Part shown: positions 15,274-44,223 of the stretch, piece by piece
How positions within the stretch are numbered: the first letter of the stretch is position 1
Layout: each line of letters opens with the position of its first letter
Origin: Methanobacteriota archaeon
GTDB taxonomy: Archaea > Halobacteriota > Bog-38 > Methanoflorentales > Methanoflorentaceae
Reading direction: 5' to 3'
Assembly (NCBI GenBank): GCA_963720465.1
Contig: OY970393.1
Span: 352,001-416,000, forward strand
Length of the DNA stretch: 64,000 nt
Notes under the pieces: generated by a model
The model's input: only the letters and a program-made list of their open reading frames with translations
Database searches by the model: none
Told to the model about the DNA's origin: nothing
Made by a program: the position numbers and the translations under genes

Positions 15274-15342
15274 TTACTTGCCTAGCTGGGTATTTTGCCA
15301 ATACTTTATATAAACGTCATAAACGTGCTCAGGCAGCGGATG
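15274..15342 (-). repeat. Integrase 3'-tail copy T2
   Basis: Translates HPLPEHVYDVYIKYWQNTQLGK*. Confidence 0.85.
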
Positions 15343-15434
15343 TCGAGAATGCTCACCTCCGCGGCGTCAATCTTCCTTTTTTCGCTCATGCCGAGGGTCG
15401 CTAATAAATACTGAAGGCAGGATCAGCGAAACAG

Positions 15435-16015: not shown

Positions 16016-16207
16016 TTGAGCAAATTAGAGAGCTTTTTACCGTGGCGCTCAAATATGCCAAGTTTGATCTGTACGCCTTTCGAGGCGCAAATACCAGTCA
16101 TATGGTATGAGGGTGTACTATATGGCCAAATGTTGGTTAGTCTAAAAATAACGAACCTATTGGGAGTTTGAGAGTTACTGGGCTCCCGACCTGAGTGTTA
16201 CGCAACA

Positions 16208-17008: not shown

Positions 17009-17119
17009 CGTGCGTACCTGGCGAAACGTCTTCCGATATACACCAAAATGGGTGGGTAAATAAAAACGTTGTGCATTGACCGAGCTGGGAGAGATCCAGA
17101 GGAAGCTTAACTAACGAGC

Positions 17120-17350
17120 TTAGATCGTTAAACGCACATCCGCCAGTACCTCATGTGCACATCATACGCTAAATCGGGCAGTCGGTGGCGATATTACTTC
17201 CACTCAACGCCTGAAACGCCGTGCGTCATTACGTAAGCGCGTTTCGACTCACCCCACGCTATAACGCCGCCCCGATACTCAGCGAACTTACACTGATCCA
17301 ACGTGCCAAAATGGCTTGAACACCGCACCAAGGGTATTTTCTGGCTCAGC
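17120..17350 (-). repeat. Integrase 3'-tail copy T4 (degenerate)
   Basis: KIPLVRCSSHFGTLDQCKFAEYRGGVIAWGESKRAYVMTHGVSGVEWK*YRHRLPDLAYDVHMRYW. Confidence 0.8.
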
Positions 17351-17738: not shown

Positions 17739-18614
17739 ATGGATGACGATGCAGAATTCATCACCCGGCTCATTGGCTTCGGACTCAGCGAGAAAGAGGT
17801 GCAAGTTTATCTGCACTTGCTAAAGCACGGCCCTAAGACGCCGTCTCCCATAGCTAAAACGCTCAAGACGTACCCCGTAGACATCCACCGCACGCTTATG
17901 AGTCTCATTGAAAAGGAGTGGGTGCGTGCCGCACACGATTCACCTACAGTTTACGCAGCGGTTGAGCTTTGTGCGGCCCTTGATTCTACCTTGAAGAAGC
18001 ACGAGAGCGAACTTCGCGAGATGGAGGCACGAAAGCTGGGGTTGCAGGAACTCGCAAAGCAACAACAGTTCTGCCCCTCCGATGACGTAGCGACGTTCAA
18101 GATCATCAAGAGTAACAAGGAACTCATCGCTGCTGTTATACCACTTTTGGACTCGATGAAGCAGGAATGGCTTGCAGCCGTACCTGGATTGGCGACGGTC
18201 ATTGCCTCATTGTTTGGCATCAACGATGCCGCCGCGGAGTTCATTCAGCGCGGAGGCAAAGTAAAAACGATAGTCGATATCTCGCATCCAATTATCGATA
18301 ACGTGCGGGAGCTGTTGCAGATTGGTGAAGAAGTGCGCCACATCGATGAACACGGCTTGATGTTCGTCGTGTTCGACCGAAGACATAGCATGACAGTGAT
18401 AAATATCGCCGAGAGCAGCTCACTGAACGCGCCGATGACAGCTCTTTGGACCGACGATCCTACCTATGCCGAATATCTCGCAGCTACGTTCGAAATGCTG
18501 TGGAAAAAGTCAGTTCCGGCTGAAGAACATATACAAAAGCTGCTGAAACAAGGCCCTCCGCCCGATACGGAAGAGACTGCTCTTGGCCATCTCGACTCTT
18601 TGGAACTGGAATGA
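17739..18614 (+). CDS. TrmB family transcriptional regulator
   Basis: 'FGLSEKEVQVYLHLLKHGP' wHTH, coiled coil, C-terminal effector domain. Confidence 0.85.
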   Translation: MDDDAEFITRLIGFGLSEKEVQVYLHLLKHGPKTPSPIAKTLKTYPVDIHRTLMSLIEKEWVRAAHDSPTVYAAVELCAALDSTLKKHESELREMEARKLGLQELAKQQQFCPSDDVATFKIIKSNKELIAAVIPLLDSMKQEWLAAVPGLATVIASLFGINDAAAEFIQRGGKVKTIVDISHPIIDNVRELLQIGEEVRHIDEHGLMFVVFDRRHSMTVINIAESSSLNAPMTALWTDDPTYAEYLAATFEMLWKKSVPAEEHIQKLLKQGPPPDTEETALGHLDSLELE

Positions 18615-18690: not shown

Positions 18691-18925
18691 CTAAGTCGTG
18701 AGAAATTTAGTATCTGCCCAATACTGCATATACAAGTCATATATGTGTTCGGGCAGGATGCTTGTAATGCTTCCAATCGACTCCGCTGACTCCATGCGTC
18801 ATTATATACGCTCGGTTTGACTGATCCCACCCTATTGCATCGCCGTATTGTTCACAAAACTTACGGAGATCACCGAGCACGAAGTGCCTCTTGAACCGTG
18901 ATATGGGGATCTTCCGTCGTTTGGC
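18691..18925 (-). repeat. Integrase 3'-tail copy T5
   Basis: RRKIPISRFKRHFVLGDLRKFCEQYGDAIGWDQSNRAYIMTHGVSGVDWKHYKHP… then frameshifted tail. Confidence 0.85.
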
Positions 18926-18972
18926 CCGCATCCCAAAAGCTATAGTGAAAAACAGCTTCATCGTCTCCTTTT

Positions 18973-19988
18973 TTGCGTCTGTTTGATGAACGGAGCTCGC
19001 CAGCTCCAGGAAAAAAGTGTAAACTCGAGTGTAAACTTTCATCCAAGTATAGCCACACTAGCATGTCGGATCTCGCGCTAACATTCACGCTTGAGGACTT
19101 ACAGGCATATCTCACGCAGCGAGCAGCAGGACTGGCACGCAAGACCGTTATATGGTTGGAAAAGGCGGCAGAACTGTTATGGAATGCAACGAAAGGCATC
19201 GTGAGCGTATCCAGGCTACAAAACTTGCGTAACTACGTACTTAAAAAATATCGCGATATCGACGCCAAACGCAAAGTCCCACCGTTTGCACGTGCATTTC
19301 TCCACTACATGTCAAAAATCAGCTTCGACCAGCGGTACGCCGCGTTTGACTTGTTCTTACAGCTCCCACGGTCGGTCAAGGAGCGCAAGCACGTCACAAG
19401 TCGCATTGTGACTAAAGACGACGTTAAAAAGTGCTCAAAGCGATAGAACAAGCACATAGGACTGGGCGAGTTGACAACTACCTTTATCTCAACTACAAAG
19501 CCTTGGTGCTATTTGCCGCGTTTACGGGACAACGACCCTTGGCAACAATCGCACGACTTACGGTGGGGCAGTTCCAGGAAGTCGTGAAACTGGAAAAGCC
19601 CATCGTCGAAGTCCTTCCACAGCAAGACAAAATACGAATGCAGCACTACTGTCCGCTCCATCCACAAGTTGTTGAGGCGATAGTGCCCCTGCTGGACGGT
19701 CGATGAGATGAAGAGCTAGTTTTTGAACAACTGTCCTTTCAGCAGTGGCTTAAGCACAACGAAGTTCGCGTTGCACAGTAATGCTTTATGGTTAACGGAG
19801 ATTTAAGGAAGTTCTGTGAACAAATGGGCGACATATTGCAGTGGGATCAGTCAAACCGAGCGTATATAATGACGCATGGAGTCAGCGGAGTCGATTGGAA
19901 GCATTACAAGCACCCATTGCCGGAAAATGTGTATGACGTTTATATGAAATATTGGACGCAGACTGAGTTCAGAACGCAGGTATTATGA
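18973..19988 (+). pseudogene. Tyrosine recombinase/integrase copy 2, frameshifted
   Basis: Three consecutive ORFs (18973-19446, 19431-19706, 19788-19988) colinear with copy 1; AFTGQRP, DKIR, DLRKF, THG, YKHPLP. Confidence 0.85.
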
Positions 19989-22252: not shown

Positions 22253-23095
22253 CTACCCACTTTCCACGAGCGCTCTAATGCGCTCTGCCCCATCAACGGC
22301 CTGCTTCCACACGAGCTCATAGTGATACATGAGATGTCGCGCGTAGGTAGGACTTTCGCATACGAATACCGTAAGTGACGTGTCTTTGAACAGAGAGCGC
22401 GCGGGGTCGAATCTGATAAGTACAAAACTCGTTATCGCATCATAGACAGTAAACCGCATACCACCCGGCGGTTCAAGGTGGCGCAGCTCCACGCCGCGCT
22501 CAAGGGCATAGCGTGCTTCTTCAAGATTGGCGCGCGAGATGTCTGTTATGAGGCGCGTGCGCACCCCGCGGCGCAGTAGGTCGGGCACCACATCAAGTTG
22601 ACCGGTCAAAAAGAATACGCCTAACATGGGCCCCAGCATAAAGGATGAAATGTTAGAGGTCGCCTCTGAATTAAGCTTTTTCGAGACGGCATCTACCTGC
22701 TTCGGGCCGCTCAGCACCCTATAGCGACACCCCGCCGATGCTGACAGGGCGTCGTCCACCCTTATCACCTCGGCGAGCTCCACCAGCTCTCGCTTAAGTG
22801 TTGCTTTCTTCCGTTGCTCCAGCTTGTGCTCGAAGAAGACCGCATCGAGAGCCGTTTCGGGGGGCATTGCAACATAGACCGTCGGCGCGCTTAACGACTT
22901 AGCCACTATGCCCTTCTCTAAAAGGGCGTTAAGCGTCCGGTGCACGTCCTCCCTATACGTATGCATGTGCCGCGCTATGACCACCGGCGGCTGCGCTCCG
23001 TACTTGAGCAGGTTACAATAGAGCCGCGCCTCTTTGTCGTTGAGTCCGAAGTCGCTGAGTCGTGTGATATATTCGAATTCGTCGTCGTCCGACAT
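22253..23095 (-). CDS. TrmB family transcriptional regulator
   Basis: 'FGLNDKEARLYCNLLKYG...TYREDVHRTL'; paralog of 17739 and 35373. Confidence 0.85.
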   Translation of the reverse strand: MSDDDEFEYITRLSDFGLNDKEARLYCNLLKYGAQPPVVIARHMHTYREDVHRTLNALLEKGIVAKSLSAPTVYVAMPPETALDAVFFEHKLEQRKKATLKRELVELAEVIRVDDALSASAGCRYRVLSGPKQVDAVSKKLNSEATSNISSFMLGPMLGVFFLTGQLDVVPDLLRRGVRTRLITDISRANLEEARYALERGVELRHLEPPGGMRFTVYDAITSFVLIRFDPARSLFKDTSLTVFVCESPTYARHLMYHYELVWKQAVDGAERIRALVESG

Positions 23096-25446: not shown

Positions 25447-25995
25447 ATGGAAAAAATGCCATTCGTTATAGAAGTTTCGGCAGAAATGCAAGCGCCGCCC
25501 AAAAAGAAAGGAGGCACAGCTACAAGCAAAATGGCAGTAAGGAAAATGGCTGCCGTTCTAGTAGTAGCGGCGGTAGCTTTTTCAGTCTTCGGCGTAGTGG
25601 GCGCAGTCGCACAAATGTCGTCAAGCTCAACGACAATGACGACGACGACACCAACCACAGGATGCGCTGCAACCACAACACCAACCACAGGATGCTCTGC
25701 AACCACGACACCAACCACAGGATGCTCTGCAACCACGACATGCTCGGGATGCTCTGCAACCACGACATGCTCGGGATGCTCCGCAACCACGACACCAACC
25801 ACAGGATGCGCTGCAACCACGACATGCTCGGGATGCTCCGCAACCACGACACCAACCACAGGATGCGCTGCAACCACAACACCAACCACAGGATGCTCCG
25901 CAACCACGACACCAACCACAGGATGCGCTGCAACCACGACACCTACGTCTAGCATGAGCAGTTCAACGATGACGACGGGGTGTTCGGCGAAATAA
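25447..25995 (+). CDS. Secreted Thr/Cys-rich tandem-repeat protein
   Basis: Signal peptide then TTTPTTGC(A/S)A and TTTCSGCSA repeats; true start may be a later ATG (25531 or 25546). Confidence 0.7.
   Translation: MEKMPFVIEVSAEMQAPPKKKGGTATSKMAVRKMAAVLVVAAVAFSVFGVVGAVAQMSSSSTTMTTTTPTTGCAATTTPTTGCSATTTPTTGCSATTTCSGCSATTTCSGCSATTTPTTGCAATTTCSGCSATTTPTTGCAATTTPTTGCSATTTPTTGCAATTTPTSSMSSSTMTTGCSAK
25645..25945 (+). repeat. Coding tandem repeat (30-nt and 27-nt units)
   Basis: ACACCAACCACAGGATGC(G/T)C(T/C)GCAACCACG units interspersed with ACATGCTCGGGATGCTC(T/C)GCAACCACG units. Confidence 0.9.
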
Positions 25996-26349
25996 GGGCG
26001 TAACTGGATACGTTACTTCCGGAATGAAGAGTTCTGGAAAGGCGACGAACCTCGCAGAATACGCGCAGATGTTTCCCCTTTGTGCCGAAAAGAGGCTCAG
26101 CGCTGAGCGGGCGATTTTTATTAACCTGGCGGCAGGCCGGTCGTCGGCTGCGCATCGTGCGCAAAAATCGGACAGGGCAGCCAGGGAATAACCTAGCTTT
26201 TTCTTTTTCTGTGTTTTGCAGTTCAGGGCTCATAAATCAAAGGCAATCGAAAAAGAAAGAACGGTGGAGGCTCTAGTGCTCTCCAACCTCTCTTTCTTTA
26301 CACGCAGTGGCGTGCTGAAACGCTAGGAAACTGCACGGGCGCGCCTAGC

Positions 26350-26464
26350 TCAGATTTTTAAGCTCACGCCTCCCCAGTACTTCATGTAAACGTCATAAAC
26401 CGAATCAGGTAGCGGATGCTTGTAAAATCGCCAGTCAATTCCGCTGACTCCGTGCGTGAGTATG
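26350..26464 (-). repeat. Integrase 3'-tail copy T7
   Basis: Translates ILTHGVSGIDWRFYKHPLPDSVYDVYMKYWGGVSLKI*. Confidence 0.9.
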
Positions 26465-26487
26465 ATTCGACAGTTTTAAAGACTTAG

Positions 26488-26904
26488 ATGCCTGTCTATT
26501 TCTGGGGCACAATGCGGGAAGAACATGAAAGTGTCGGTGATTTGACCTTCCATCTTGACGATCAGGTGCAAACTGGGCAGGGCTTTGCTAGATGCTCAAT
26601 CAACCGAGATGAGATACACGCGGGGACTTTGGAAAACCCAAGGGCCACGGCTAACGGACTTGCGGACATATACGGCGTAATTTTCCTTCATCCCAAGGAA
26701 GACCAGAGGTTGTTGCCACAGCTCTACCAGCATCTTAAAACTGACAAGCAGATTCACCTTGAGGCTGACTTCATAAACAGGTATACAGATGCGTTTATAC
26801 CGTTGAGGCTCGTGGTTCATCTCTTTCGAATCGACATGTCAAGCTCTGAAACCATCGTTTGCGAATTTGACTCAGCTCATATATCAATAATCAGCAGGGG
26901 CTAA
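26488..26904 (+). CDS. Hypothetical protein
   Basis: 138-aa ORF starting just beyond T7. Confidence 0.55.
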   Translation: MPVYFWGTMREEHESVGDLTFHLDDQVQTGQGFARCSINRDEIHAGTLENPRATANGLADIYGVIFLHPKEDQRLLPQLYQHLKTDKQIHLEADFINRYTDAFIPLRLVVHLFRIDMSSSETIVCEFDSAHISIISRG

Positions 26905-27145
26905 CTAACATTTGAGTGACTCACAGTATTTTTTTTAGATATCTACGTAAGGCCGATCTAGGTTCTCACTAGAATGTTTGAAGCCGATCCTAATGCGCTA
27001 ACTGCGGACAGCCTCCACGCCGGCTTCAAACACGAAGGCGGAGCGTAGTGAAAGGAATCCACGATAACACTAAAACGCTGCAGTATATTGAAACCTATGT
27101 CCGAAGAAAAAAAAGAGATTCTATGTATTCAGAGTTATGACTGAA

Positions 27146-27307
27146 CTATTTTGTGAACAAGGCAGCAATTCCACCTAGGAATAATATGATAACTGCCAAC
27201 CAAGCTAGCCAAATTACTAAAAATGGAAACAACGCTAAGAGGATTGCGAGTATGATAGCGAGTCCTATCATCCCACCCGCACTCAATTGTCTTGTCTCCG
27301 CCATCAT
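27146..27307 (-). CDS. Small membrane protein (53 aa)
   Basis: Manual translation MMAETRQLSAGGMIGLAIILAILLALFPFLVIWLAWLAVIILFLGGIAALFTK*; strong RBS AGGAGGTGA. Confidence 0.7.
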   Translation of the reverse strand: MMAETRQLSAGGMIGLAIILAILLALFPFLVIWLAWLAVIILFLGGIAALFTK

Positions 27308-27383
27308 TTCACCTCCTGTTGAATTTTAGTCCAATCTTTGTTTCAGTGTAATCATTATTTGTTTGTCTGCGATCATCTAAATA

Positions 27384-27446
27384 TTAGAACTCGACATCGC
27401 TCCAATACTGCATATAAACATCATACACGTGCTCAGGCAGCGGATG
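27384..27446 (-). repeat. Integrase 3'-tail copy T8
   Basis: Translates HPLPEHVYDVYMQYWSDVEF*. Confidence 0.88.
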
Positions 27447-27652
27447 TATTGCGCCTATTTGGTTTGATCTAGAGCTTCTGTCGGAGTCTGTATGAGGCTC
27501 CGGTTGCCGTGTCGAATTCTCGCGTCGAACGGAAAATGTTTTGCTAAGAAGTCGGAACCTTAATGGGCCTCCACTGACGTGGAATTTTGCAAATAGTCTG
27601 AAAGAAAAAGCATAATGTAAATTACATCACGAGATTATTCTGATATACAAAA

Positions 27653-28435
27653 ATGAGCGAAAATACATTAAATCTTGGTAAAATGGAAGAAAAAGACCTG
27701 TATCCTACCGTATTCCAGCGGAAGTCCATTAGAAAGTACGATTTAGACCGCCTCGATGAAGATACGTTAAAGGAGATCAGAGATCATCTTCAAACTTTAA
27801 AACCGTTGCATAAGGACATTAAAATTGAATTCAAGATTTTATCTCCCTATGTTGTTAAAAGACGGACGATGAGAGAAGCACTGCACTATATAGCTGTTTT
27901 TTCAGAGGTAAAAGAGGGGTATCTAAGCAACGTAGGGTTCATGCTGCAGCAGATGGATCTATTTTTTTCTGCTAATGGACTGGGTAGTTGCTGGCAGGGG
28001 ATCCCTACTCTCAAAAAAGAAGGTTTGGCAAGTTCACGTCTGAAATTTATCATGTTAATGCCGTTTGGAAAGCCCCAGGAAACGTTACACCGAACAAAAA
28101 CTTCCCAATTCAAAAGAAAATCACTCCAGGAGATAAGTGACATTAAAGGCGCAGATGATTTACTGGAAACAGCTCGTCTTGCTCCTTCTGCACGCAATGC
28201 ACAGGAGTGGTTTTTTACGGGTGATGAACATTTAATTCATGCATATTACCGTAAACCAAGCTTCATCCCGGGACTTTTAATCAAAAAATATCCTCCCATG
28301 GATGTGGGAATTAGTCTTTATCACTTGAAACTGGGTGCAGAACATTTTGGCAAGGAAACTGAAATTATATTTGATAACCCGGAGGATGATACTCTCAATG
28401 ATTATGAGTATGTTGCCAGTTTGCGCTTAAAATGA
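27653..28435 (+). CDS. Nitroreductase-family protein (two domains)
   Basis: 'RKSIRKY', 'GLGSCWQG', 'ARLAPSARNAQEW', 'MDVGISLYH'; visibly AT-rich. Confidence 0.85.
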   Translation: MSENTLNLGKMEEKDLYPTVFQRKSIRKYDLDRLDEDTLKEIRDHLQTLKPLHKDIKIEFKILSPYVVKRRTMREALHYIAVFSEVKEGYLSNVGFMLQQMDLFFSANGLGSCWQGIPTLKKEGLASSRLKFIMLMPFGKPQETLHRTKTSQFKRKSLQEISDIKGADDLLETARLAPSARNAQEWFFTGDEHLIHAYYRKPSFIPGLLIKKYPPMDVGISLYHLKLGAEHFGKETEIIFDNPEDDTLNDYEYVASLRLK

Positions 28436-28512
28436 CTCAATGCGCTTCTCCAATACAAGCATTTAAACAGAATTGCATACGCAATCTGGATAGAAGCAAT
28501 CGGTGACAGACA

Positions 28513-29656
28513 ATGCTTTACCGGAAGATGAAAAAGGCCGCACCCAACCTCTCTATCCTCGGGTTCGGGTGCATGCGGCTCCCCCTGAAAGAGAGCGGGC
28601 AGATTGACGAGGAAAAAACAACCGGGATGATGCGGTATGCGATCGACCACGGTGTGAATTATATCGATACCGCGTATCCCTATCACAACGGTGAAAGCGA
28701 ACCAGTCGTCGGGCGTGCACTCGCCGGCGGGTACCGCGAAAAGGTGCACCTGGCGACCAAGCTCCCCAGCTGGCTGATAAAATCCCGGGAGGATATGGAC
28801 AAGTATCTCAATGAGCAGCTTGCGCGGCTCAGAACCGACTCCATCGATTTCTATCTCCTGCACGGGCTCGTGCAGCCGTTCTGGGAGAATCTCTCGGCTC
28901 TCGGCGTTACGGACTTTCTAGATGACGCCATCGCGGATGAGCGGATCCGCTATGCTGGATTCTCATTTCATGACAACACGAAGGTCTTTAACGAGATCGT
29001 GAAAAGTTACGATTGGACATTCGCCCAAATCCAGTGACAATTTCATGGACGAACACTACCAGGCAGGGACGAAGGGGCTGAAATACGCGGCGAAGAAAGG
29101 GCTCGGCATCGTGGTCATGGAGCCGATCCGAGGCGGTTTGCTTGCCAGGGATCTTGCTGGTATCTCAGAGATCTGGAAGAAGGCACACGTTCAACGTCCC
29201 CCCGCAGAATGGGCGCTTCGCTGGGTCTGGAACCATCCGGAAGTGACCGTCGTCCTTTCCGGGATGTCGGCACCGGAGCAGGTCAGGCAGAATGTCGATG
29301 CCGCAAAAAACGGGTTGCCGAACTCCTTGACAAAGGCAGAACTCACCCTGTTCAAGAACGTAAAAAAAGAGTTAGAGAAGCGGATTGTAATCCCCTGCAC
29401 CGGATGCAAGTACTGTATGCCGTGTCCGCATGGTGTCAGCATCCCAGAGTGCTTTGAATATTATAACCGCGGGCACATGTACGAAGACGAGGAACAGACC
29501 CGGCGGATCTATTTGGCCTTCCTCGGTGGTGTGTTAGACGGCAATCCAAGGTACGCGTCCTTCTGCGAAGAGTGCGGGGAATGCGAAGAGAAATGCCCCC
29601 AGAGTCTCCCGATCCGAAATAACCTGAAGAACGTAGTGGAATATTTCGGGAAATAA
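28513..29656 (+). pseudogene. Aldo/keto reductase with C-terminal Fe-S domain, 1-nt frameshift
   Basis: 'LGFGCMRLP', 'NYIDTAYPY'; CAG TGAC AAT TTC ATG at ~29032 where QYNFM is expected; CTGCKYCMPCP and CEECGECEEKCP. Confidence 0.85.
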
Positions 29657-29755
29657 TATGAAGTGGGGCGCGATATCCGCGCCAAATGTATAAAGTCCAG
29701 CACCAATTGCGGTTTTGTTATACACTTAGCTAAACGATCAGGAGGCGCTCTGATT

Positions 29756-29899
29756 ATGACGGCTATGATTCCGCAATGTTACTTCTGTAAGCTCCACGAG
29801 CAAGGTATTAAATGCGCCAAATATGACCAAATCGCCCCCGAAATATTGGTTAACCTTAGAAAGTGCGCGTTTAAAGAAGATACCACCCCGGATAGGTAA
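29756..29899 (+). CDS. Small Cys-rich protein (47 aa)
   Basis: MTAMIPQCYFCKLHEQGIKCAKYDQIAPEILVNLRKCAF…; RBS AGGAGG. Confidence 0.5.
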   Translation: MTAMIPQCYFCKLHEQGIKCAKYDQIAPEILVNLRKCAFKEDTTPDR

Positions 29900-30149
29900 A
29901 CGATGACGGTAATAGAGAGCGCAGTAAAATACGGATCTATCTTCTCTATTGGCCCCACCTTAACAGAGGGTGGCATTTGCGGCCTTATACCCAAATTCGG
30001 TTTCTATTCGGCACGCTCTGAATTCTAGAAACACGAGCCAAACTTTTCGAAGCGTCACCTTTAATAAAAGCTAAATTCTGCTGCAAATGCGGGAACAGCC
30101 TCTCTAATTGACTATCTTTTTGCGGGTTTGTTGAAGGCGCGTCCGCGTA

Positions 30150-30268
30150 CTAACTAAGGTCGTCGAAGGTGACATGTTTCCAGTACTGCATATACAGATC
30201 ATAAACGTGGTCAGGCAGTGGATGCCGATAATTGCTTCACTCAACACCGCGAACGCTGTGTGCGCATA
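30150..30268 (-). repeat. Integrase 3'-tail copy T9
   Basis: Translates …GVE*SNYRHPLPDHVYDLYMQYWKHVTFDDLS*. Confidence 0.85.
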
Positions 30269-30407
30269 ACGGCCTTGACTCGGACTAGAACTGTAACACA
30301 AGTTAGTTACAGCAATGCTTATTTACGCCGAGCGTATAGTGTCTGGTTTCAAAAAACGGCGGTTGAGTAATCAATGCGGAGACCAACACACGCATGGAAG
30401 TGATAAG

Positions 30408-30719
30408 ATGTCCAAGTTTTTCATACGATGGCACGTTGACAATTTCAAGATGCCCGCTACTCCTGAAGAGACTGGGAAGCTCTTTATATCGATGCTCGAA
30501 ACGGTGGAAGCCGGTTTGCACACTGGCAAGCTTAAGGACTGGGGACAGCTCGGCAACGGACGGGACGGATATGCGATTAGTGAGTTAAACGAAGAGGAGC
30601 TTTTCGCTTGCATGCTCCAGTGGATGCCGTTTATAACGTTTGAGGTATTTCCGGTGGTCAGTGCCGACCAGTCGATGGAAGCACTAGACAAAGCAGTTGC
30701 GACGCTGCAGTCTCCGTAA
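30408..30719 (+). CDS. Small dimeric alpha/beta-barrel-like protein (DUF3303-like)
   Basis: MSKFFIRW…LKDWG…GYAISE…WMPFITFEVFPV; sole gene between T9 and T10. Confidence 0.65.
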   Translation: MSKFFIRWHVDNFKMPATPEETGKLFISMLETVEAGLHTGKLKDWGQLGNGRDGYAISELNEEELFACMLQWMPFITFEVFPVVSADQSMEALDKAVATLQSP

Positions 30720-30788
30720 AAAAGTGCTTCGGCGGTGGAGGAGAAAAGAGGAGCGACCTTACACTTTAAGCGGATGAGCTGCGACTGT

Positions 30789-30927
30789 TCACAGACTAGA
30801 GCGCACGTCTTTCCAATATTTCATTTACACGTCATACACGTTCTCTGGCAGCGGATGCCGATAATGTGCTCATGAAACGTCCCTAGCGCCACGCGTAAGA
30901 ACGTAACGCAATTTGACTCACTCCACG
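30789..30927 (-). repeat. Integrase 3'-tail copy T10
   Basis: Translates …YVLTRGARDVS*AHYRHPLPENVYDV*MKYWKDVRSSL*. Confidence 0.85.
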
Positions 30928-31175
30928 TAGCAACGCCCCTCTGGCAGCAAGTTTTCTCTTGGCTCTCAAGAAGGGCCACTGTGCTTTTATGGCCGACTAC
31001 AAAGCTTATTAATGCACCGCACCGCTCGCAATCACCGCGAGCGAGACAGGTTTATATAGATCCCTCTCGAAATGAAACAAGAAAAACAGGGTGTATGGAG
31101 GATCTCTCGTACACCTTTGCTGTTTATGTCCCATAGGCGCCCGTAAGCTAGGAAGAATCGCTTGCTGCCCCTCTC

Positions 31176-32999
31176 TTGGTGCCCACGATGGCAAAGAAAA
31201 AGCAGACTAACGTCCTTCTTGTTGAAGATAATCCGTCCGACGCTCGGCTTGTTCAAGACCTGTTGCGCGATGCCCAGCACGAACGCTTTACCGTTATCAT
31301 TGCTCCCACACTATCCAAAGGCCTTGACCAGGTCTCACGAGATGCCTTCGATGTCATCCTCTTAGACCTCGGCTTGCCCGACAGTCAGGGGCTTGACACA
31401 TTCCATGCCGTCCACGAGCACGCACTACAGCTGCCTATTGTCGTGTTGACGGTCTCGGACGACGAGGAACTTGGGCGGAAGGCGGTGCAGGAAGGAGCAC
31501 AGGGGTTCCTCCTGAAGGACGTAGTATTAGTCAGCGAGTCGTATGCCGGGATATCCACTCGCATGATACGGCACGCCATTGAACAGAAGCGGGCAGAAGC
31601 AGCGTTCAATGCAAGCGAGGAGCAATTTAGAACCCTCTTCAACGACTCACCTGTTGCACAGGTGCGCTACGATGCCGATGGGCGTCCCGTTGAGGCAAAT
31701 AAGGCAGCTTATACCTTCCTCGGCATTAGTAGCATAGCCGACATCCAGGACTGGACGATTTTCACCAGTCCGCGCGTCTCAGACCTTGGCAAAGCACAAT
31801 TGCGAGGAGGACGTTCCATAAGATACGAACTGTGTTACGACTTTGCCGTTCTCCGAGAGAGCAACTATTTCCCCACAAGCCACTCAAGTGTGCGATACGC
31901 CGATATCCATACGGCCCCTCTCTTCAATGCGGAAGGTAGCGTCGCAGGATACCTCGCGCAGATTATTGACATCACCGACAGTAAGAACGCAGCGGAAGAG
32001 CGCGATAGCATTGCTCGATTCCCTGAGGAAAATCCCGATCCCGTGCTTCGCATCGGCTCTGCCGGGCAAATCCTCTATGCAAACGCGGCAGCCGAAGCCC
32101 TATTGCAGGCGTTGGATCACCGTAAGGATGATGCCATTCCCACAGAGTGGATGACATCGGTGGACGAAACATACAGGCGCAGGAAGCTGCTCACCGAAGA
32201 CATCATGGCAGCATCGCGCGTGTTCCAGATGCGCTTCGTACCGGTGCCCGACGAAAGCTATGTGAACGTTTACGGCATGAATATTACCGCGCTAAAACAG
32301 GCAGAAAAAGCACTTGAAGACGCGCAACATCTCGCAGGTGTCGGCGAAACGGCAGCGATGATCGGGCACGATCTCCGCAACCCTCTGCAGGTACTCCAGT
32401 ACATCGTCGATCTCCAGAAGCTGCGCGTCGAACGCCTCTCTCCTGATCAGCGTAATTCTGACGAATGGAAGAAACAAGCCCAGCTCTTTGACAAGATAAG
32501 CGAACAGGTTTTTTACATGGATAAGATCGTCGGCGACCTGCAGGACTATGCCCGTCCGATTACGCCAGAGTACGAAGCGCTCTCGGTTGGTAAGCTCATC
32601 AACGATGTGCTTGAATCGACCCCCCATGCCGAAAGCGTGCGCATCGCCACAGACATCCCTGATCTACAGATGATGGCTGATCCGCATCTCATGCACCGTG
32701 TGTTCGCCAACCTCATCCTAAACGCGCTTCAGGCGATGCCCGAGGGAGGGACGCTCACTATCATTGTCTCTGCCTTCGATCACGCGGTTGTTATAAACGT
32801 CCACGACACTGGTGTCGGCATTCTAGAGGAGATGAAAGACAAGCTCTTCTCACCGCTGATCACCGGCAAAGCAAAGGGCACTGGGTTGGGGTTAGCAGTC
32901 GTGAAACGGATAGTCGACGCTCATGGCGGAACGATTGCCTTCGAGAGTGAAGCGGGTAAGGGCACGACGTTCACAGTACGATTGCCATTGAGCTCTTGA
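31176..32999 (+). CDS. Hybrid sensor histidine kinase (REC-PAS-PAS-HisKA-HATPase)
   Basis: VLLVEDN, LLDLGLPD, PAS motifs, GHDLRNPL, NLILNALQA, DTGVG, GTGLGL. Confidence 0.93.
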   Translation: MVPTMAKKKQTNVLLVEDNPSDARLVQDLLRDAQHERFTVIIAPTLSKGLDQVSRDAFDVILLDLGLPDSQGLDTFHAVHEHALQLPIVVLTVSDDEELGRKAVQEGAQGFLLKDVVLVSESYAGISTRMIRHAIEQKRAEAAFNASEEQFRTLFNDSPVAQVRYDADGRPVEANKAAYTFLGISSIADIQDWTIFTSPRVSDLGKAQLRGGRSIRYELCYDFAVLRESNYFPTSHSSVRYADIHTAPLFNAEGSVAGYLAQIIDITDSKNAAEERDSIARFPEENPDPVLRIGSAGQILYANAAAEALLQALDHRKDDAIPTEWMTSVDETYRRRKLLTEDIMAASRVFQMRFVPVPDESYVNVYGMNITALKQAEKALEDAQHLAGVGETAAMIGHDLRNPLQVLQYIVDLQKLRVERLSPDQRNSDEWKKQAQLFDKISEQVFYMDKIVGDLQDYARPITPEYEALSVGKLINDVLESTPHAESVRIATDIPDLQMMADPHLMHRVFANLILNALQAMPEGGTLTIIVSAFDHAVVINVHDTGVGILEEMKDKLFSPLITGKAKGTGLGLAVVKRIVDAHGGTIAFESEAGKGTTFTVRLPLSS

Positions 33000-33016
33000 C
33001 TGCAGAGTCGAAAGAA

Positions 33017-33130
33017 TTATGCCGTCCTGAATTCGATCTGGCCCCAATATCTCATATAGATGTCATAGACAGGCTCCGGCAACGGATGTTTGCAGTGCTT
33101 GCTTTCAATTCTGCGGACTCAGTGCGTCAT
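33017..33130 (-). repeat. Integrase 3'-tail copy T11
   Basis: Translates MTH*VRRIESKHCKHPLPEPVYDIYMRYWGQIEFRTA*. Confidence 0.85.
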
Positions 33131-33243
33131 AGCTATTCTCGACTAAAGCAGAACTAGAAAAAAATTAGCGACCAAACAAAAGTTCATTTCGTCTGGCCGC
33201 AGAGTTGCGGTCCGAAATTACCGCTTCGTTTCTTCCATTGCTT

Positions 33244-33266
33244 CTGCTCAGGCAGCGGGGCTTGAA
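33244..33266 (-). repeat. Possible minimal integrase-tail core T12
   Basis: CTGCTCAGGCAGCGG matches the PLPEQ core of T1; very short. Confidence 0.4.
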
Positions 33267-33346
33267 GTCATGAAAAGAGCTTGCAGCCCAGTAAAAAAGC
33301 GGTAGCTTCTGCTAAGGTGTAGGTTGCTTAATTTATAATCGAAGAG

Positions 33347-34144
33347 TTAAGGAGAGGCTCCGTTTCTGCATACCCCTTTTTTCGCCCTTAAATAACTCTT
33401 TTGAATCACGCTTGTATTGCCTCTTAACAACACGGGGTAAAGGCTGAAGTGCTTCGCACATCTGTCAACGTTTGCGTCAAAGTCTGACTCATAGGAAAGA
33501 CCGGTATCCACTTTGGCGATCTTCTTAAATCGCGCATGCTTCATTAACGTGAAGTCCTCGCTTAGATCTTGCCACTGAGCAGCAACCATGGGCGTCAAAA
33601 ACAGCATGATGTTGTTGTTGGTGAGCATGTTCGCATATGCCTGATTCCCACCAAGCGCAAGGGCGATGCAGTCATCAACCGTTGCCCCGTCGTCGTCGGC
33701 GAGGAAGAAAAGTTGACATGTACTGCCGTTGAAATCGTGCTCGAGAGTCCTAAGGGCATCACAAATCCCATAGAGCACAAAGATCCCGTCTGAAAAGTTT
33801 GACATGCGCTCGATCTGGTGGTATACCTCTTGCTTAAGGAGCTTGCTATCGACGTGAAGCCTCAACGGAAAAACGTGGACAACGACAGCAAGATCGTCTC
33901 CGCTTCGACGGCGAAGCAGCTGCTGAAGAACGCCACGTCTTTTTGTCAAATGTCCGCTAGAATGCGCCCCTTGTCTATGCTTCTTAACGAGATTAAAGGC
34001 CCCTTCAAAATCCTTAATAAGAAATGGGCGGTTCTGTGATCGTAACTTTCGTGCTAGCTCTTGCTGTTCTGTGCTGTCAACGATAACAAGCTGCTTGATG
34101 TCGTCGTCATCGGCAAGAACAGAGGTGAGCTCATCTTCGAGCAT
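33347..34144 (-). CDS. DUF1638-like protein
   Basis: '(IISCR)MLEDEL', 'LRLHVD', 'LYGIC', 'VDDCIALALGG', 'KVDTGL'; true start probably slightly upstream. Confidence 0.75.
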   Translation of the reverse strand: MLEDELTSVLADDDDIKQLVIVDSTEQQELARKLRSQNRPFLIKDFEGAFNLVKKHRQGAHSSGHLTKRRGVLQQLLRRRSGDDLAVVVHVFPLRLHVDSKLLKQEVYHQIERMSNFSDGIFVLYGICDALRTLEHDFNGSTCQLFFLADDDGATVDDCIALALGGNQAYANMLTNNNIMLFLTPMVAAQWQDLSEDFTLMKHARFKKIAKVDTGLSYESDFDANVDRCAKHFSLYPVLLRGNTSVIQKSYLRAKKGVCRNGASP

Positions 34145-34180
34145 TCTGCATGAAATGATACTTAAGATGGGAATGTGGGG

Positions 34181-35174
34181 TCACCTTGTGAACACTACTT
34201 TTTTCCAATACTAGATATAAACATTATAAACCTGCTCAGACAGCGGATGCCGGTAATTGCTCCACTCGATCCACACGCCATGCGTAAGAATTTAGGCGCG
34301 ATAAGATTCATTCCACCGCACTATGTCGCCGTGCTGCTCAGCGAACTTTCGTAGATCTGACGTGACAAAGTGGCTATTGCATCGTGCTAAGGGAATCCGC
34401 CGCTTCTGCAGCCACTTGCGGAAGCTTTCCAAGATAAACATCGATTCGGCGCCTTCTCTGCCATCGGACAGACCCTCCATTACATCCGCAGCTTGCGGGT
34501 GTACAGGCGCATAATGTTCCATCTTGATTTTGTCTTGTGCGGGTTCGACGTGGACAACCGGTTTCTCAAGCTCCAGCTTCCCTAAACTGTTCAACCCTCA
34601 ACTGTTTTATCGCACTGTAAGGGCGTTGACTCGTAAAAGCCCCGTACAACACAACCCCTGCAAACTGCCGAGCATCTTCTTCGTCGATCGAACCGTGTAA
34701 CATCTGCTGCTTGATAACAGCCAGCGTGTGCTCAATACCGTCTTTTGTGATCACTTGCGCCGTCATTTTCTTCTTTATCTTACGCACCCTTGGTTTCTCA
34801 AGAAACATGTCGAAAGCTAGGTAGCGAGGATCGAGTGTCAGCTTCGCCTGATACTTCAAGAAGCCCTTAGTAAAATTCAGCACCTTGTTTTGAGCGTAGA
34901 AGTCATCGTACTTCTTGAACAGAACCGTACGAAGCTGTTTCAAGCTACCTTTGCTGATCGAACCCTTGGTATGTGACCAGAACACCTCTGCAGCTTTCTT
35001 GATTCAGGCGCTGGACTTGTGCGTTAATCCAGCCGTTCGCCGCGTGGGATAGCTATCAAGCTCCTTCTTCGTATACTTGAACTTCAAGGTCGCCAGCGTT
35101 TCACTCTTTGGAGGCTTTAATTCTGCAAGATGAATATTAGTTTCTTGAGCTTCAAACAGTAAACGAGCTTCCAT
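34181..35174 (-). pseudogene. Tyrosine recombinase/integrase copy 3, several stops and frameshifts
   Basis: MEARLLF…RRTAGLTHKSSA*IKKAAEVFW, GAFTSQRP, DKIK, DLRKFAEQHGD, degenerate YRHPL…YWKK tail. Confidence 0.85.
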
Positions 35175-35177
35175 AAG

Positions 35178-35220
35178 CTGTCGAGGCTCCGACTCGGGTT
35201 CAAATCCCGACTCGGGCGCT
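35178..35220 (+). mobile_element. 3' half of tRNA-Asp(GTC), att-site remnant
   Basis: CTGTCGA-GGCTC-CGAC-TCGGG-TTCAAAT-CCCGA-CTCGGGC-G: anticodon loop, T-arm, acceptor 3' strand; 3 bp from the integrase ATG. Confidence 0.82.
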
Positions 35221-35372
35221 CCTTTTTTGCTTTTGCGGAGCGTCTAATTGAGAAAACAATATGACTTCAAAGCACCGAACTACGCGCATTAACGCGAGAC
35301 ACTGCGTGTTTGATCGCCGCTTTTTCTAGGCCAACCTATATCTATTATTTGGCTCACATGCGTTTTTGATAA

Positions 35373-36209
35373 TTGATGACCAGTGACGACGAGTTTACCA
35401 GCCGTTTGATTGGTTTTGGTCTCAGTGAAAAGGAGGCACAGCTGTATTTGCACTTGCTCAAGTACGGCCCAAAGTCTCCGTCCCCCATCGCCAAATCGCT
35501 GAAGACGTATCGGGAGGACGTGCATCGTACACTCACCAGTCTTATCGAGAAAGGCATGGTGCGCCCCTCGCTCGACGCGCCCACCATCTACGCTGCGGTT
35601 GATCTTGATGCAGCGCTCGAAGCCGCGCTGAAAAAGCACGAGAGCGAACTTCGCGAGATGGAGGCACGAAAGCGGGAGCTGCAGCAGCTCTCGCAACAAC
35701 AACAATTCAGGCCCTCCGATGAAGTCGCCACGTTCAAGATCCTCAAGACTATGAAAGAACTCCTCGCTGTCAGCGCGCCAGTAATTGACGAGATGCAAAA
35801 GGAATGGCTGATGGTGACTCCTGCTTATTTGAGTGTCATAGCCTCCCGCTTTGGAGTCAACGACGCTGCGTCTGCGTTTATCAAGCGCGGCGGAACGGTG
35901 CGAGTCATCATCGACATTTCGCATCAATATATTGAACCGGTGCGAGAGATGATAGCCATCGGTGAAGAAGTGCGCCACGTAGATCAACATGGGATCACGT
36001 TCACCGTATACGATAGAAGAATCTCTATATCCACGATCAACAGAGAAGTCGAGAGCTTCTCTCTCGAAGCGCCCATCTGTGCACTCTGGACCGACGACCC
36101 CGCCTACGCTGCGTACCTCGCCTCCACATTTGAGATGCTATGGGCACAGGCAGTTCCGGCAGAAGAGCGAATACGCGAGCTTTTGGAACAGGCGCCCCCG
36201 CAGGCATAA
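35373..36209 (+). CDS. TrmB family transcriptional regulator
   Basis: Close paralog of 17739-18614. Confidence 0.87.
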   Translation: MMTSDDEFTSRLIGFGLSEKEAQLYLHLLKYGPKSPSPIAKSLKTYREDVHRTLTSLIEKGMVRPSLDAPTIYAAVDLDAALEAALKKHESELREMEARKRELQQLSQQQQFRPSDEVATFKILKTMKELLAVSAPVIDEMQKEWLMVTPAYLSVIASRFGVNDAASAFIKRGGTVRVIIDISHQYIEPVREMIAIGEEVRHVDQHGITFTVYDRRISISTINREVESFSLEAPICALWTDDPAYAAYLASTFEMLWAQAVPAEERIRELLEQAPPQA

Positions 36210-38640: not shown

Positions 38641-39033
38641 AGAGGCGACTCCTTGCTATCCTCTGTTTTTCATTTTTTGCCTCTGCCTCTCGCATCATGA
38701 TTCACTCCTTTTGTTTAACACAGAGGGCTTGGGCCCATTCAGATGCTTACAGCAGAGCCAAAGCAAAAAAAAAAGAAGCCAGGTCATCCCTGGCTTAAAT
38801 CGAATTCGATTTTAACTTTTGCGGTTGCCCTGATTAATGACTGATCCTATCAGGTCGCTCGTAAGCGATGATCGTTTGCGAATCACTGATATCAGGGCAC
38901 TCGCTTTTTTTTCTTTTCTCCAATGCTCCCAGTTTTTGTAGCAGCGCCTACAGCTGAGATCAACTGTAGGCACTCGCCGTCGCTTTTACAGCAGGGCTGT
39001 ATCACGACCTGCTGTCATCGCTCGTAGACTTGC

Positions 39034-39597
39034 TTAGCTCTTCGCGATTGCTGTTGCGTTGCCCCAGGCCACGGCAGGGCTAGTGTTGATGTCTTTGATG
39101 ACGATGTTGCTGTTGACAGCAGTGTTGCTCTGGCCGGTTTGGATCGGGGCGCCTACCGTACCGTCATCGACTGGCAGCCGACGGACGGTGTTGTTGTCGC
39201 CAGTAACTGATTGGGTGTTTGTCTGGATGATTGTCTGCGTGGATGCAGCTGCTTGGCTGTTTCCACTCGCGCTCGCGGCCGCGCCACCCTTGGCAGCGAC
39301 TGCGGCTGCAGGCGTAACGACTGTCTTAACGGGCATTGGCTTCCAGATGGGCATCGCCCAGACTGCTTTGACCGCACAGCACTGAGTGACGACGCAGCAC
39401 GCGACTGTTGGACAGCAGCACGTCGTGGGGCAGCAGCTGCTGCAGCACGTTGAGGTCACGCAGCTCGTGCACTGAGCGCAGGTCGTGGCAGCGCAGGTGC
39501 TTGTCGTGGCCTTGGCGGCGCACTGGGCTGAAACTGTGCCCGTCGCTGCAAGTGCCACAAAAGCGAGCACTAATAGAGAAACGATAACTTTCTTCAT
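39034..39597 (-). CDS. Secreted Cys-rich / Gln-Asn-Thr-rich protein, copy A
   Basis: Signal peptide, CC/CCC cluster, RBS GAGGAG; paralog at 43651. Confidence 0.85.
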   Translation of the reverse strand: MKKVIVSLLVLAFVALAATGTVSAQCAAKATTSTCAATTCAQCTSCVTSTCCSSCCPTTCCCPTVACCVVTQCCAVKAVWAMPIWKPMPVKTVVTPAAAVAAKGGAAASASGNSQAAASTQTIIQTNTQSVTGDNNTVRRLPVDDGTVGAPIQTGQSNTAVNSNIVIKDINTSPAVAWGNATAIAKS

Positions 39598-39930
39598 GAT
39601 TCATCTCCTCTTAGGCTAACCGAGTTTCGGCTAACGTTTTTTCATTAAAGCAAATTATTATAAGGCTTTTTCGATTCTCACGTCATTTACTCGGTCTTGC
39701 GGGCGTAGCGGTGCTGAGTGAGGACTAAAAACACCGATCAACTCGGTTAGCCTCGCGTTTTGATGCTGCTTACGCGACTACTCACAAGATGCCGGGGTCC
39801 GGCTGACTTGCCTGTGAGAAAATCACTTCAATCATCTAATCAGGACTACAGCGTACGGTTTAAAACAATGACGACACATTGCCACAATGTGAGACAACAT
39901 GTCAATGGAGAATATTCTTATGGCTGAGAC

Positions 39931-41659: not shown

Positions 41660-41790
41660 TGCTTGACGCCTCTTCGTACTCCGTGTAGACGTCGTAATGA
41701 CGTAGCCCCGCTGCTTAGCAAACTTGCGAAGATCTGAACGAACAAAATAGCAACAGCACCGTGATCGATATCTTCTATTTCTGTGTCCAC
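41660..41790 (-). repeat. Integrase 3'-tail copy T13 (internally deleted)
   Basis: …YFVRSDLRKFAKQRGYVI joined directly to YDVYTEY. Confidence 0.7.
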
Positions 41791-42008
41791 ATTCGGAAGC
41801 TTTCAAGAGTGACAATACGTTCTTTGTCTTCACTGCCGTCACAAAGAGTTTCTAGAACCCAGCGAATCGCTTCCAAATGTTTCTACTCGCTATGGAGGCC
41901 TGAGCACCTTTCATCCTGCGACTCTTAGAAACTTTCTCGGCGGCAATCTGGTTTACCCTGAAAAGGGTATCAACGTTGAGCCGCCGAGACCAGCAACGGC
42001 AAAACGGT

Positions 42009-43224: not shown

Positions 43225-43350
43225 CACAACGCACATCTTTCCCGTATCTCACATAGCATCTTATAGGTGTTCGGGCAATGTGTGGCGATAATCGCTCCAC
43301 TTTACACCTCTTACCGTGTAACTGAGAACGTACGCTTGACTCGGTTTGCG
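43225..43350 (-). repeat. Integrase 3'-tail copy T14 (degenerate)
   Basis: …AYVLSYTVRGVKWSDYRHTLPEH… followed by a GKDVR-like end. Confidence 0.65.
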
Positions 43351-43650
43351 GCCATAGTCCATGCTTAAAGCACGACTAAAGCAAAAAAAGAAGCCAGGTC
43401 ATCCCTGGCTCAAATGGAATTCGATTTTAGCTTTTGCGACTGCCCTGGATAATGATTGGCCTATTAAAAGGTCGCTCGTAAGCGATGATCGTTTACAGAT
43501 CACTGAGATAAGGACACTCGCCTTTTTTCTTCTATCTGTTCACTCTCTGTGGTTTGCAGGCAAGACCTACAGCTGAGATCGACTGTAGGTACTCGCCGTC
43601 GTTTACAGCAGGGCTGTGCCACGATGTGCTGTCATCGCTCGTAGACTTAC

Positions 43651-44223
43651 TTAGCTTTTCGCGATTGCTGTTGCGTTGCCCCAGGCCACGGCAGGGCTAG
43701 TGTTGATGTCTTTGATGACGACGTTGCTGTTGACAGCAGTGTTGCTCTGGCTGGGTTGGATCCTGTCTGACGTACTTGGAGCGACTGGTAAGAGCAGCCG
43801 ACCGACGGTGTTATTGTCGCCAGTAACTGATTGGGTGTTTGTCTGGGTGATTGTCTGCGTGGTTGCAGCTGCTTGGCTGTTTCCACTCGCGCTCGCGGCC
43901 GCGCCACCCTTGGCAGCGACTGCGGCTGCAGGCGTAACGACTGCTGGCATTGCCTTGTAGACTGGCTTCCAGACGGGCATCGCCCAGACTGCTTTAACTT
44001 CACAGCACTGCGTGACGACGCAGCACGCGACTGTTGGACAGCAGCATGTCGTGGGGCAGCAGCTGCTGCAGCACGTTGAGGTCACGCAGCTCGTGCACTG
44101 AGCACATACCGTCGCTGCACTAGTGCTTGACGTGACCTTGGCGGCGCACTGGGCTGAAACTGTGCCCGTCGCTGCAAGTGCCACAAAAGCGAGCACTAAT
44201 AGAGAAACGATAACTTTTTTCAT
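43651..44223 (-). CDS. Secreted Cys-rich / Gln-Asn-Thr-rich protein, copy B
   Basis: Highly similar to 39034-39597, flanks included. Confidence 0.85.
   Translation of the reverse strand: MKKVIVSLLVLAFVALAATGTVSAQCAAKVTSSTSAATVCAQCTSCVTSTCCSSCCPTTCCCPTVACCVVTQCCEVKAVWAMPVWKPVYKAMPAVVTPAAAVAAKGGAAASASGNSQAAATTQTITQTNTQSVTGDNNTVGRLLLPVAPSTSDRIQPSQSNTAVNSNVVIKDINTSPAVAWGNATAIAKS

Follow-up and report, generated by a model that had tools for sequence, protein, structure and literature searches.

How does a row of gene-sized blocks, separated by copies of one short sequence, come to stand beside an integrase gene and one half of a tRNA gene? This question is raised by an array in the genome of a Methanobacteriota archaeon, studied here in a stretch of 64,000 nucleotides (nt), hereafter the window (G000:C1:352001-416000); the genome is a single contig of 2.31 Mb with 51.7% GC. 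Read on the minus strand from position 35233 of the window, the sub-array of interest consists of half of a tRNA-Asp attachment (att) site, an integrase gene (int3, integrase copy 3) and then six gene blocks separated by short sequences that we call tails (Table 1). In order from the integrase, the cargo genes are those for a DUF1638 protein, a hybrid histidine kinase, a DUF3303 protein, a broken aldo/keto reductase (AKR) with a 4Fe-4S domain, a nitroreductase of the TM1586 type and a hypothetical protein of 138 amino acids (aa). Between these blocks there are five co-oriented tails and a scrap of 15 nt, and in the whole window an independent repeat search found 12 co-oriented tail copies. The first-pass annotation of this DNA had read the sub-array as a series of cassettes acquired one after another from different donors downstream of a single integrase platform, and the parts that it listed (tRNA-Asp half, integrase copy 3, cargo and tails) are all present in the order claimed. 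The analysis below identifies the tails as relics of separate, once-functional integrase genes and not as nucleotide-level recombination sites; the array as a whole is probably a scar field left by the repeated integration of small integrase-plus-cargo elements at the tRNA-Asp att site.

The description of the units as co-oriented, tail-bounded cassettes holds for the tails, which share one orientation, but less well for the cargo. The integrase reads toward the cassettes and the DUF1638 gene lies with it on the minus strand, while the other five blocks lie on the plus strand. Moreover, the boundary between the nitroreductase and AKR modules (28440/28441) is without a detectable tail and has only a tail-like scrap of ~20 nt. 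No whole tRNA or known RNA was found in the window with ARAGORN and Rfam. The related records used for comparison come from peat, bog, fen and wetland; they are metagenome-assembled genomes (MAGs) whose labels read Methanobacteriota, Halobacteriota or Methanomicrobia archaeon.

Tails and the integrase family

A DNA profile of 1035 positions was built from nine full-length integrase copies of this genome, and was used with nhmmer to locate the tails (E 1.6e-12 to 3.5e-26 for those of the sub-array); boundaries set by the hidden Markov model (HMM) are good to ~10 nt only. The profile has 67 matches in the genome, of which 52 are tails and 9 are full-length copies; the rest are 4 fragments of the 5' part and 2 internal ones. 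All 52 tails extend into the last ~75 of the 1035 positions and most end at 1014-1035; their start points are spread over 640-973 on the model and are denser toward the 3' end. The tails comprise the last 20-70 codons of the gene, with surviving co-oriented stretches of 60-250 nt of partial identity, and in translation they read ...DLRKFAEQHGD..W..SN.AYILTHGVSGVDW..YKHPLPE.VYDVYMQYW..stop. Their column entropy tracks the codon phase, with 1.34-1.44 bits at third positions and 0.55-0.98 bits at first and second positions, and they contain in-frame stops, frameshifts and indels. No tail hairpin was detected: when six tails were folded on both strands, 12 of 12 folds were no better than those of shuffled sequences (z -0.70 to +1.22). 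The codon periodicity, the common end at the stop, the spread of 5' truncation points, the lesions and the lack of a hairpin together identify the tails as integrase relics. Since 24-252 nt separate the cut end of a tail from the gene or unit that follows, the tails have been truly truncated and have not simply decayed beyond recognition.

The tails of the sub-array are 59-79% identical to each other in a common register of 61 nt, whereas T7, T8 and T10 match other genomes at 84-91%; the DNA between the tails is unrelated. A similar arrangement is found in 106 loci from relatives and metagenomes, which hold 112 tails, 104 full-length copies, 13 5' fragments and 10 internal fragments. The usual picture in these loci is an intact tRNA (Asp, Val or His), a full-length integrase and then tails on the same strand. 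Among 92 tails in loci with a plus-strand full-length copy, 64 are downstream of it on the same strand, 17 are upstream on the same strand and 11 are on the opposite strand, with a median spacing of 1193 nt from the nearest such copy. In the genome under study, three full-length integrases are each followed within 40-70 nt by a tail relic (genome positions 1558453-1560201, 1901687-1902932 and 2104169-2105373); two of these integrases have uninterrupted frames and the copy at 1901687 is split in two high-scoring segment pairs. Because the three integrase/tail junctions are mutually homologous, a module made of an integrase and an old tail must itself have spread.

The integrase next to the att half is dead. 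Its ATG (35174) lies 4 nt from the att half and its 3' end forms the tail adjoining DUF1638, but the gene is interrupted by 3 in-frame stops and, near 34570, by 1 frameshift. Its lineage, recognized by 92-93% identity over the int3/DUF1638 unit, is full-length here, cut at model position 943 in G002 and cut at 910 in G009. In contigs of metagenome runs X6 and X8 it lacks 34242-34875, whereas the X5 copy is full-length and does not have the extra base found here where the frame shifts. Truncation of the integrase is thus secondary and has occurred independently in different genomes. The 15-nt scrap at 33244-33258 is probably what the first-pass annotation had counted as tail T12; the same junction is found in G009 with a tail of 64 nt and in G002 with 41 nt.

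No Pfam family, including Phage_integrase (PF00589), was matched by the integrase at E<=1, and a profile search gave no PDB sequence match below E 0.6. The predicted fold is that of a tyrosine recombinase. An AlphaFold2 model from 30 aligned homologs (pLDDT 83) was compared with known structures using Foldseek, and the top matches were XerA, Cre, Tn1549 Int, lambda Int and IntI, with probability 0.89-1.0; XerH and XerD were matched as well, and IntI (2a3v) is just one among many matches of this fold. All proteins in the Foldseek list are tyrosine recombinases or proteins of the same fold (YopR, MrpR), nine of them with E<=0.001; template modelling (TM) scores over the whole chain are low (0.24-0.37) since the domain arrangement differs. 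Residues R157, K189, H194, R250, W280 and Y283 are invariant in the 30 sequences and, by their order and by analogy, are candidate catalytic residues. The family has 733 homologs at E<=1e-5 and a relative in at least 514 metagenome loci. All its named members come from Halobacteriota or Euryarchaeota MAGs, where some are annotated 'integrase' (JGI) and most 'hypothetical'; among viral contigs (IMG/VR), nine pattern matches yielded no confirmed relative. As judged from these homologs, the family appears to be lineage-specific and confined to peat and wetland Halobacteriota MAGs. Frames are uninterrupted in 4 of the 9 full copies of the present genome. An intact family member is located, for example, at genome position 2297504-2298421. 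In two other copies (at the tRNA-Val locus and in the left arm described below) the reading frame stays open through the tRNA sequence, and at the tRNA-Val locus it is open for ~1.5 kb from inside the tRNA; this N-terminal extension is not conserved.

Mobile cassettes and tRNA attachment sites

The change in base composition between blocks that had been noted by eye was confirmed by GC and codon counts: GC is 0.398 in the nitroreductase unit and 0.516 in the AKR unit, and GC at third codon positions is 0.37 and 0.68-0.70, respectively, as compared with 0.57-0.62 in core genes. The blocks match relatives separately and in differing contexts (hypothetical gene, 26457-27066; nitroreductase, ~27483-28440; AKR, 28441-30043; DUF3303, 30233-30864; DUF1638, 33245-34302). 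For the nitroreductase, identity is 94% in G006, as against 76% for core genes, 90% in G008 (core 72%) and 93-94% in the sister-genus genomes G018 and G022. Likewise, AKR is 88% identical in G004 (core 71%) and DUF1638 92% in G016 (core 66%). Identities of 88-94% to genomes of the same or a sister genus, where core genes reach 66-76%, bear out the earlier proposal of sequential, independent acquisition and show that cassettes are mobile separately across species. The proposal of different donors agrees with best-match taxonomy, as the closest named relatives outside the lineage belong to Methanobacterium for the nitroreductase (62-78%) and to Methanoregula for AKR (76-83%).

Unit boundaries follow the genes closely and vary by tens of nt between genomes. 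For the nitroreductase unit, homology begins at 27483, 27549, 27568 or 27585 and ends 0-60 nt past the stop; for the hypothetical unit, the left boundary is sharp at 26457-26470 in five relatives' places (G009, G006, G008, G004, L126/L127). Scraps of neighbouring tails travel with the units. In the complete genome of a close relative (G011), the nitroreductase unit comes directly after an intact tRNA-Asp, and minus-strand tails come next. In the window, this unit has at its 5' end (27483-27501) a hairpin, GGAGTCTGTATGAGGCTCC, that resembles the tRNA-Asp anticodon arm. The same motif is found upstream of the nitroreductase unit in G011, G010 and G009, and at genome position 993391; it is probably a decayed att half travelling with the unit.

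The intact tRNA-Asp(GTC) gene is located at genome position 347125-347198, 4.8 kb to the left of the window and ~40 kb to the left of the att half of the sub-array. Right of it are two tRNA-Asp 3' halves, at 13863-13900 and 35178-35233 of the window. The former is decayed by an 18-nt deletion and adjoins integrase copy 1, which has a single TAA. Left of the intact gene are two tRNA-Asp 5' fragments (genome positions 326096 and 329859), each followed by plus-strand integrase sequence and one then by a row of plus-strand tails. In the right arm, minus-strand tails and integrases end at 3' halves, and the anticodon loop is where 3' and 5' halves overlap. The stretch of the genome from 326 kb to 395 kb contains about 20 integrase relics. 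When genome 326096-347198 was compared with window 1-35233, two tail-plus-cargo blocks were found to be common to both arms, inverted and in swapped order: window 15004-15857 is 90% identical to genome 331987-332837, and window 16204-17262 is 85% identical to genome 335253-336308. Another MAG, L002, has the same two-sided layout.

Three elements of relatives are bounded on both sides by tRNA-half repeats and are 4.2, 5.6 and 7.8 kb long; in L049 the repeat is 60 nt and its copies are 4.2 kb apart, and L002 and L009 hold elements bounded likewise. They consist of an integrase and small accessory genes (nitroreductase, GYD, DUF1801, DUF6338 and others). In a Pfam scan of their 23 open reading frames (ORFs), no replication module (primase/helicase) and no packaging genes like those of phage-inducible chromosomal islands were found; one ORF gave a partial terminase-like match (E 6.5e-8). 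No circular small contigs were indicated by terminal direct repeats in the 106 loci, a weak negative as the stored stretches are not always whole contigs. In the window, 18705-19974 is an inverted pair made up of a truncated minus-strand relic (model positions 756-1024) and, right next to it on the plus strand, an integrase that is full-length but frameshifted. The 12-nt spacer of the pair, 18965-18976, repeats the 3' end of the tRNA-Asp att segment without a mismatch, and this is the only junction that keeps a clear att end. A candidate at the T8 junction, where the last 6 nt of att seemed to be kept, was dropped, the letters fitting integrase sequence equally well.

Origin of the array

Recombination between tails has occurred in nature. 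Contigs of four runs were mapped to 26000-35500; these are contigs and not reads, in which frequencies and rare forms are invisible. In X5, X6 and X8, which are peat metagenomes from three other studies, contigs join 30156 to 30805 or 30810, that is, the first 14-19 nt of T9 are followed by T10, and there is no depth over 30438-30754. What these contigs lack is the DUF3303 cassette, from where one tail starts to the matching register of the tail after it; the two joints differ by 5 nt. In G009, DUF3303 adjoins a full-length integrase whose stop-side end matches T10 at ~92% over ~75 nt. As the match continues up to a GGATGC block and there is a sharp difference beyond it, either T10 or the G009 integrase is a mosaic. 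We read the forms in X5, X6 and X8 as deletions by recombination of T9 with T10, since the stop-side part of T10 matches the integrase that stands beside DUF3303 in G009; the alternative is the reverse event, an insertion. The relics thus also serve as homology for the loss or exchange of cassettes. Some candidates were set aside. DUF3303 homology in G009 had seemed to run from a tail block to the equivalent block of the following tail, but its left end is a stop-side truncation of the T9 counterpart, and it no longer counts toward in-register exchange. Joints of 27446 to 35176 (side of 30, one contig) and of 30858 to 35229 (opposite strands, side of 38) have sides too short to interpret.

Under the reading that we consider probable, each element would have consisted of an integrase of the tyrosine recombinase type, a tRNA half of ~40-60 nt directly upstream of it and one to a few accessory genes. 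Integration would place the element between the intact tRNA and the tRNA half, and later elements entering the same site would produce a tandem array. Deletions would then take an internal att half along with the 5' part of the integrase next to it, leaving the 3' tail and a captured cargo that can no longer be excised; loss of att would in this way fix the cargo. The stops of integrase and cargo are 29-120 nt apart, and hence deletions that spare the cargo would also spare the tail end. Further deletion would wear away unselected DNA until a block is little more than a gene and its promoter, and recombination of tail with tail, or of tail with a live integrase, would delete or swap cassettes in register and make mosaic tails. 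The order of insertion belongs to the inferred part of this scheme, in which intact integrase copies elsewhere in the genome may act in trans.

Several observations weigh against this account. The truncation points crowd into the last quarter of the gene, with an excess of very short tails, which would take erosion in several rounds or selection against the longer relics. No integrase of the sub-array is more complete than int3, the outermost one, yet simple insertion at the intact tRNA would make it the oldest. No att half lies beside any internal tail, and the tandem integration of each unit has to be supposed. The joints fall within 5 nt of each other at the start of a tail and not in the longest identical block (13 nt), where plain homologous recombination would be expected to place them. 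Finally, the joints are read from contigs and the tail ends from HMM boundaries, within the limits given above.

Of the other explanations, two give the integrase-derived tails a present role. In the first, tails are retained for a function, either as portable homology for cassette exchange or as promoter or terminator of the cargo. This would explain the survival of the 3' end, and the in-register loss of a cassette and the mosaic tail are evidence that tails are used in recombination. In addition, 4 of 5 tails lie 24-252 nt upstream of the start of a plus-strand cargo gene, and the reverse complement of the YDVYMQYW codons is CATATAAAC-like, as judged by eye only. However, the tails have been free to decay: they contain stops and indels, and some are down to scraps of 15-20 nt. 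Moreover, the short distance between the integrase and cargo stops accounts for their retention in the absence of function; we regard retention for function as unlikely. In the second, an archaeal cassette system would use the worn integrase ends as its working recombination modules. A cassette would be one gene with one tail; it would enter or leave an array by recombining in register with whichever tail is resident, and live integrases of the family would catalyse or assist the reaction. If this were true, the 3' end of an integrase gene would double as a cassette site, in a gene-capture device distinct from integrons. We give this possibility a small share of the probability.

An integron-like platform, in which one integrase beside the att site inserts promoterless cassettes and the tail is the equivalent of attC, is a further alternative. 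The regular architecture of gene-sized blocks between co-oriented repeats suggests it, as do the presence of the cassettes separately in other genomes and the presence or absence of one cassette exactly from tail to tail in metagenomes. Nonetheless, a hairpin site of attC type, a fixed recombination core and a live IntI-type integrase beside the array were looked for, and none was found. The tails have codon periodicity, a continuous spread of lengths, stops and frameshifts; their folds, as described above, are no better than shuffles, and int3 is dead. Tail starts are spread over the model positions given above, and the indel joints are located at the start of a tail while the mosaic breakpoint of T10 is at the HPLP block. 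The cargo is mostly antisense to the integrase, with one block inverted, some module boundaries have no tail, and single cargo genes adjoin full-length integrases in relatives, as DUF3303 does in G009. The claim of one integrase platform is therefore not supported, and we judge an integron-like origin to be very unlikely. Local duplication of one integrase end with its neighbouring DNA, followed by divergence in place, is hardly credible: some tail-plus-cargo blocks are indeed duplicated in the genome (the two blocks common to both arms), but the sub-array tails are too dissimilar, several have closer counterparts in other genomes, and the DNA between them is unrelated.

Comparison with known systems and other features

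Direct repeats of part of a tRNA with an integrase adjoining, and an island with several partial tRNAs and integrase fragments, are the marks of accretion at a tRNA target, and all are present here. The locus is best filed among tRNA-site accretion islands; what is new is the archaeal lineage and an integrase family for which no publications were found. The closest described case is the tycheposon island of Prochlorococcus, in which elements already present are displaced deeper into the island by those that arrive after them (Hackl et al., bioRxiv 10.1101/2020.12.28.424599). The two have in common elements with a tyrosine recombinase at tRNA genes, partial tRNAs, fragmented integrases and left-over cargo. 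They differ in several respects: the host here is an archaeon and the integrase is without a Pfam match; the elements are cargo-only, of 4-8 kb, with no replication module found by Pfam in the three scanned; relics are far denser, 52 tails and 9 full copies being found within 2.3 Mb, with erosion to gene-sized blocks; and growth of the array proceeds to either side of a single tRNA, where 5'-half sites mark the left arm and 3'-half sites the right.

Integrative and conjugative elements, integrative mobilizable elements and decayed derivatives such as cis-mobilizable elements of bacteria also undergo tandem site-specific accretion at one att site, and the loss of internal recombination modules merges neighbours into composite islands. 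The present array resembles these in its probable tandem build-up and subsequent loss of internal recombination modules, but it has no conjugation or mobilisation modules, its units are much smaller and its relics far more numerous. Integrons consist of IntI, attI and attC cassettes, and archaeal integrons have been reported from MAGs. The likeness to integrons lies in the rows of gene-sized cassettes, a recurring element beside a tyrosine recombinase and cassettes common to several genomes. In contrast to integrons, the recurring element here is a decaying piece of integrase coding sequence and not a structured attC, each cassette apparently came with its own integrase, there is no single live platform and the cargo genes do not all point the same way. 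She and co-workers reportedly described archaeal gene capture and 'suicidal' integrases of the SSV type in 2001 and 2004. Integration at tRNA genes, integrase pseudogenes left behind, hybrids formed by recombination of fragments and fixation of cargo once the integrase is disabled are reported to be features of those systems too. However, the relics here are 3' ends cut at variable points and not int(N)/int(C) halves split at att, the att half of int3 is 4 nt upstream of the start codon, and the hosts are mesophilic peat methanogens and not hyperthermophiles. Successive integrations and hybrid integrases are described for archaeal 'suicidal' integrases in a further study (Badel et al. 2020, PMC7253208).

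A full-text search (Methanoflorens and integrase) found no paper on mobile elements of this lineage, and among the matches listed for archaeal integrase remnants and tandem islands, as judged from titles and the beginnings of abstracts, none concerned it. These are uncultured methanogens of peat and wetland, relevant to methane release, and the locus illustrates how their accessory genes turn over: the integrase family would deliver single genes or small sets to tRNA sites, and the cargo would then become fixed, be cut back to the size of a gene and spread from one species or genus to another. Arrays of this kind look integron-like but arise otherwise, which calls for caution with automated integron or cassette calls in archaeal MAGs. 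They also offer a natural system in which to follow gene capture, pseudogene erosion and recombination between short, diverged repeats.

Table 1. Features of the sub-array, listed from the att half leftward; hmm, positions on the 1035-position integrase profile
Feature	Position in window	Strand	Evidence or remark
att half: tRNA-Asp positions 33-74 and 14 nt of 3' flank, attR-like direct repeat	35178..35233	+	56/56 identical to genome 347157-347212
int3, full-length integrase pseudogene	34183..35174	-	hmm 8-1033, E 1.2e-221
DUF1638 gene, cargo of int3 unit (unit ~33245-35233)	33347..34144	-	PF07796, 1.7e-26; 92-93% in G002, G009 from 33245
Micro-relic, 15 nt of HPLP-coding block of older tail, eroded from stop side	33244..33258	-	
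Tail T11, integrase 3' relic with in-frame stop	33028..33131	-	hmm 924-1027
Response-regulator/PAS/HisKA/HATPase hybrid histidine kinase	31176..32999	+	relatives: 81% or paralog-level matches only
Tail T10	30801..30924	-	hmm 899-1023
DUF3303-like gene	30315..30719	+	PF11746, 2.3e-7
Tail T9	30162..30262	-	hmm 929-1029
AKR unit, aldo/keto reductase with 4Fe-4S domain in two pieces (28513-29037, 29045-29656)	28441..30043	+	
Cys-rich 78-aa ORF of AKR unit	29663-29899		within 365-nt segment repeated in many relatives
Possible tail micro-relic at nitroreductase/AKR boundary	28450..28470	-	likeness by eye, below nhmmer detection
Nitroreductase unit, AT-rich (TM1586 family gene 27653-28435)	27483..28440	+	
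Tail T8, among shortest in window, begins at HPLP codons	27385..27447	-	hmm 966-1028
Repeated 267-nt segment with 53-aa membrane-peptide ORF (27146-27307, minus)	27064..27330		
Hypothetical 138-aa gene unit (gene 26488-26904)	26465..27063	+	
Tail T7	26351..26464	-	hmm 921-1034

Relatives have copies (76-88% identity) of two segments of the sub-array, 27064-27330 and 29679-30043, in many places, and the former also recurs at positions 783073 and 1696792 of the same genome; they may be small array-associated genes or repeats. The frame of the AKR/4Fe-4S gene changes at 29035-29045, in a conserved IQYNFMDE stretch, while intact relatives have 380 aa; the break is either a real lesion or an assembly error. 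To the left of T7, 25612-25971 is a tandem array of at least nine copies of a 27-30-nt unit with strong AT skew. It is open on both strands, with Thr/Pro/Cys-rich TTPTTGC(A/S)A repeats on the plus strand and VVGVVVAEHP repeats on the minus strand, and these repeat ORFs have no Pfam match. Beyond the att half, a block of ~0.9 kb is duplicated at 38768-39681 and 43383-44308, the copies being 84-97% identical and 4.6 kb apart; near it, beyond the second att half, are integrase relics at 41696-41857 and 43231-43338. Three paralogs of TrmB-family regulators lie in or beside the island (17739-18614, 22253-23095 and 35373-36209), and between the first and the third of these, 17754-18053 and 35391-35690 are 73% identical.

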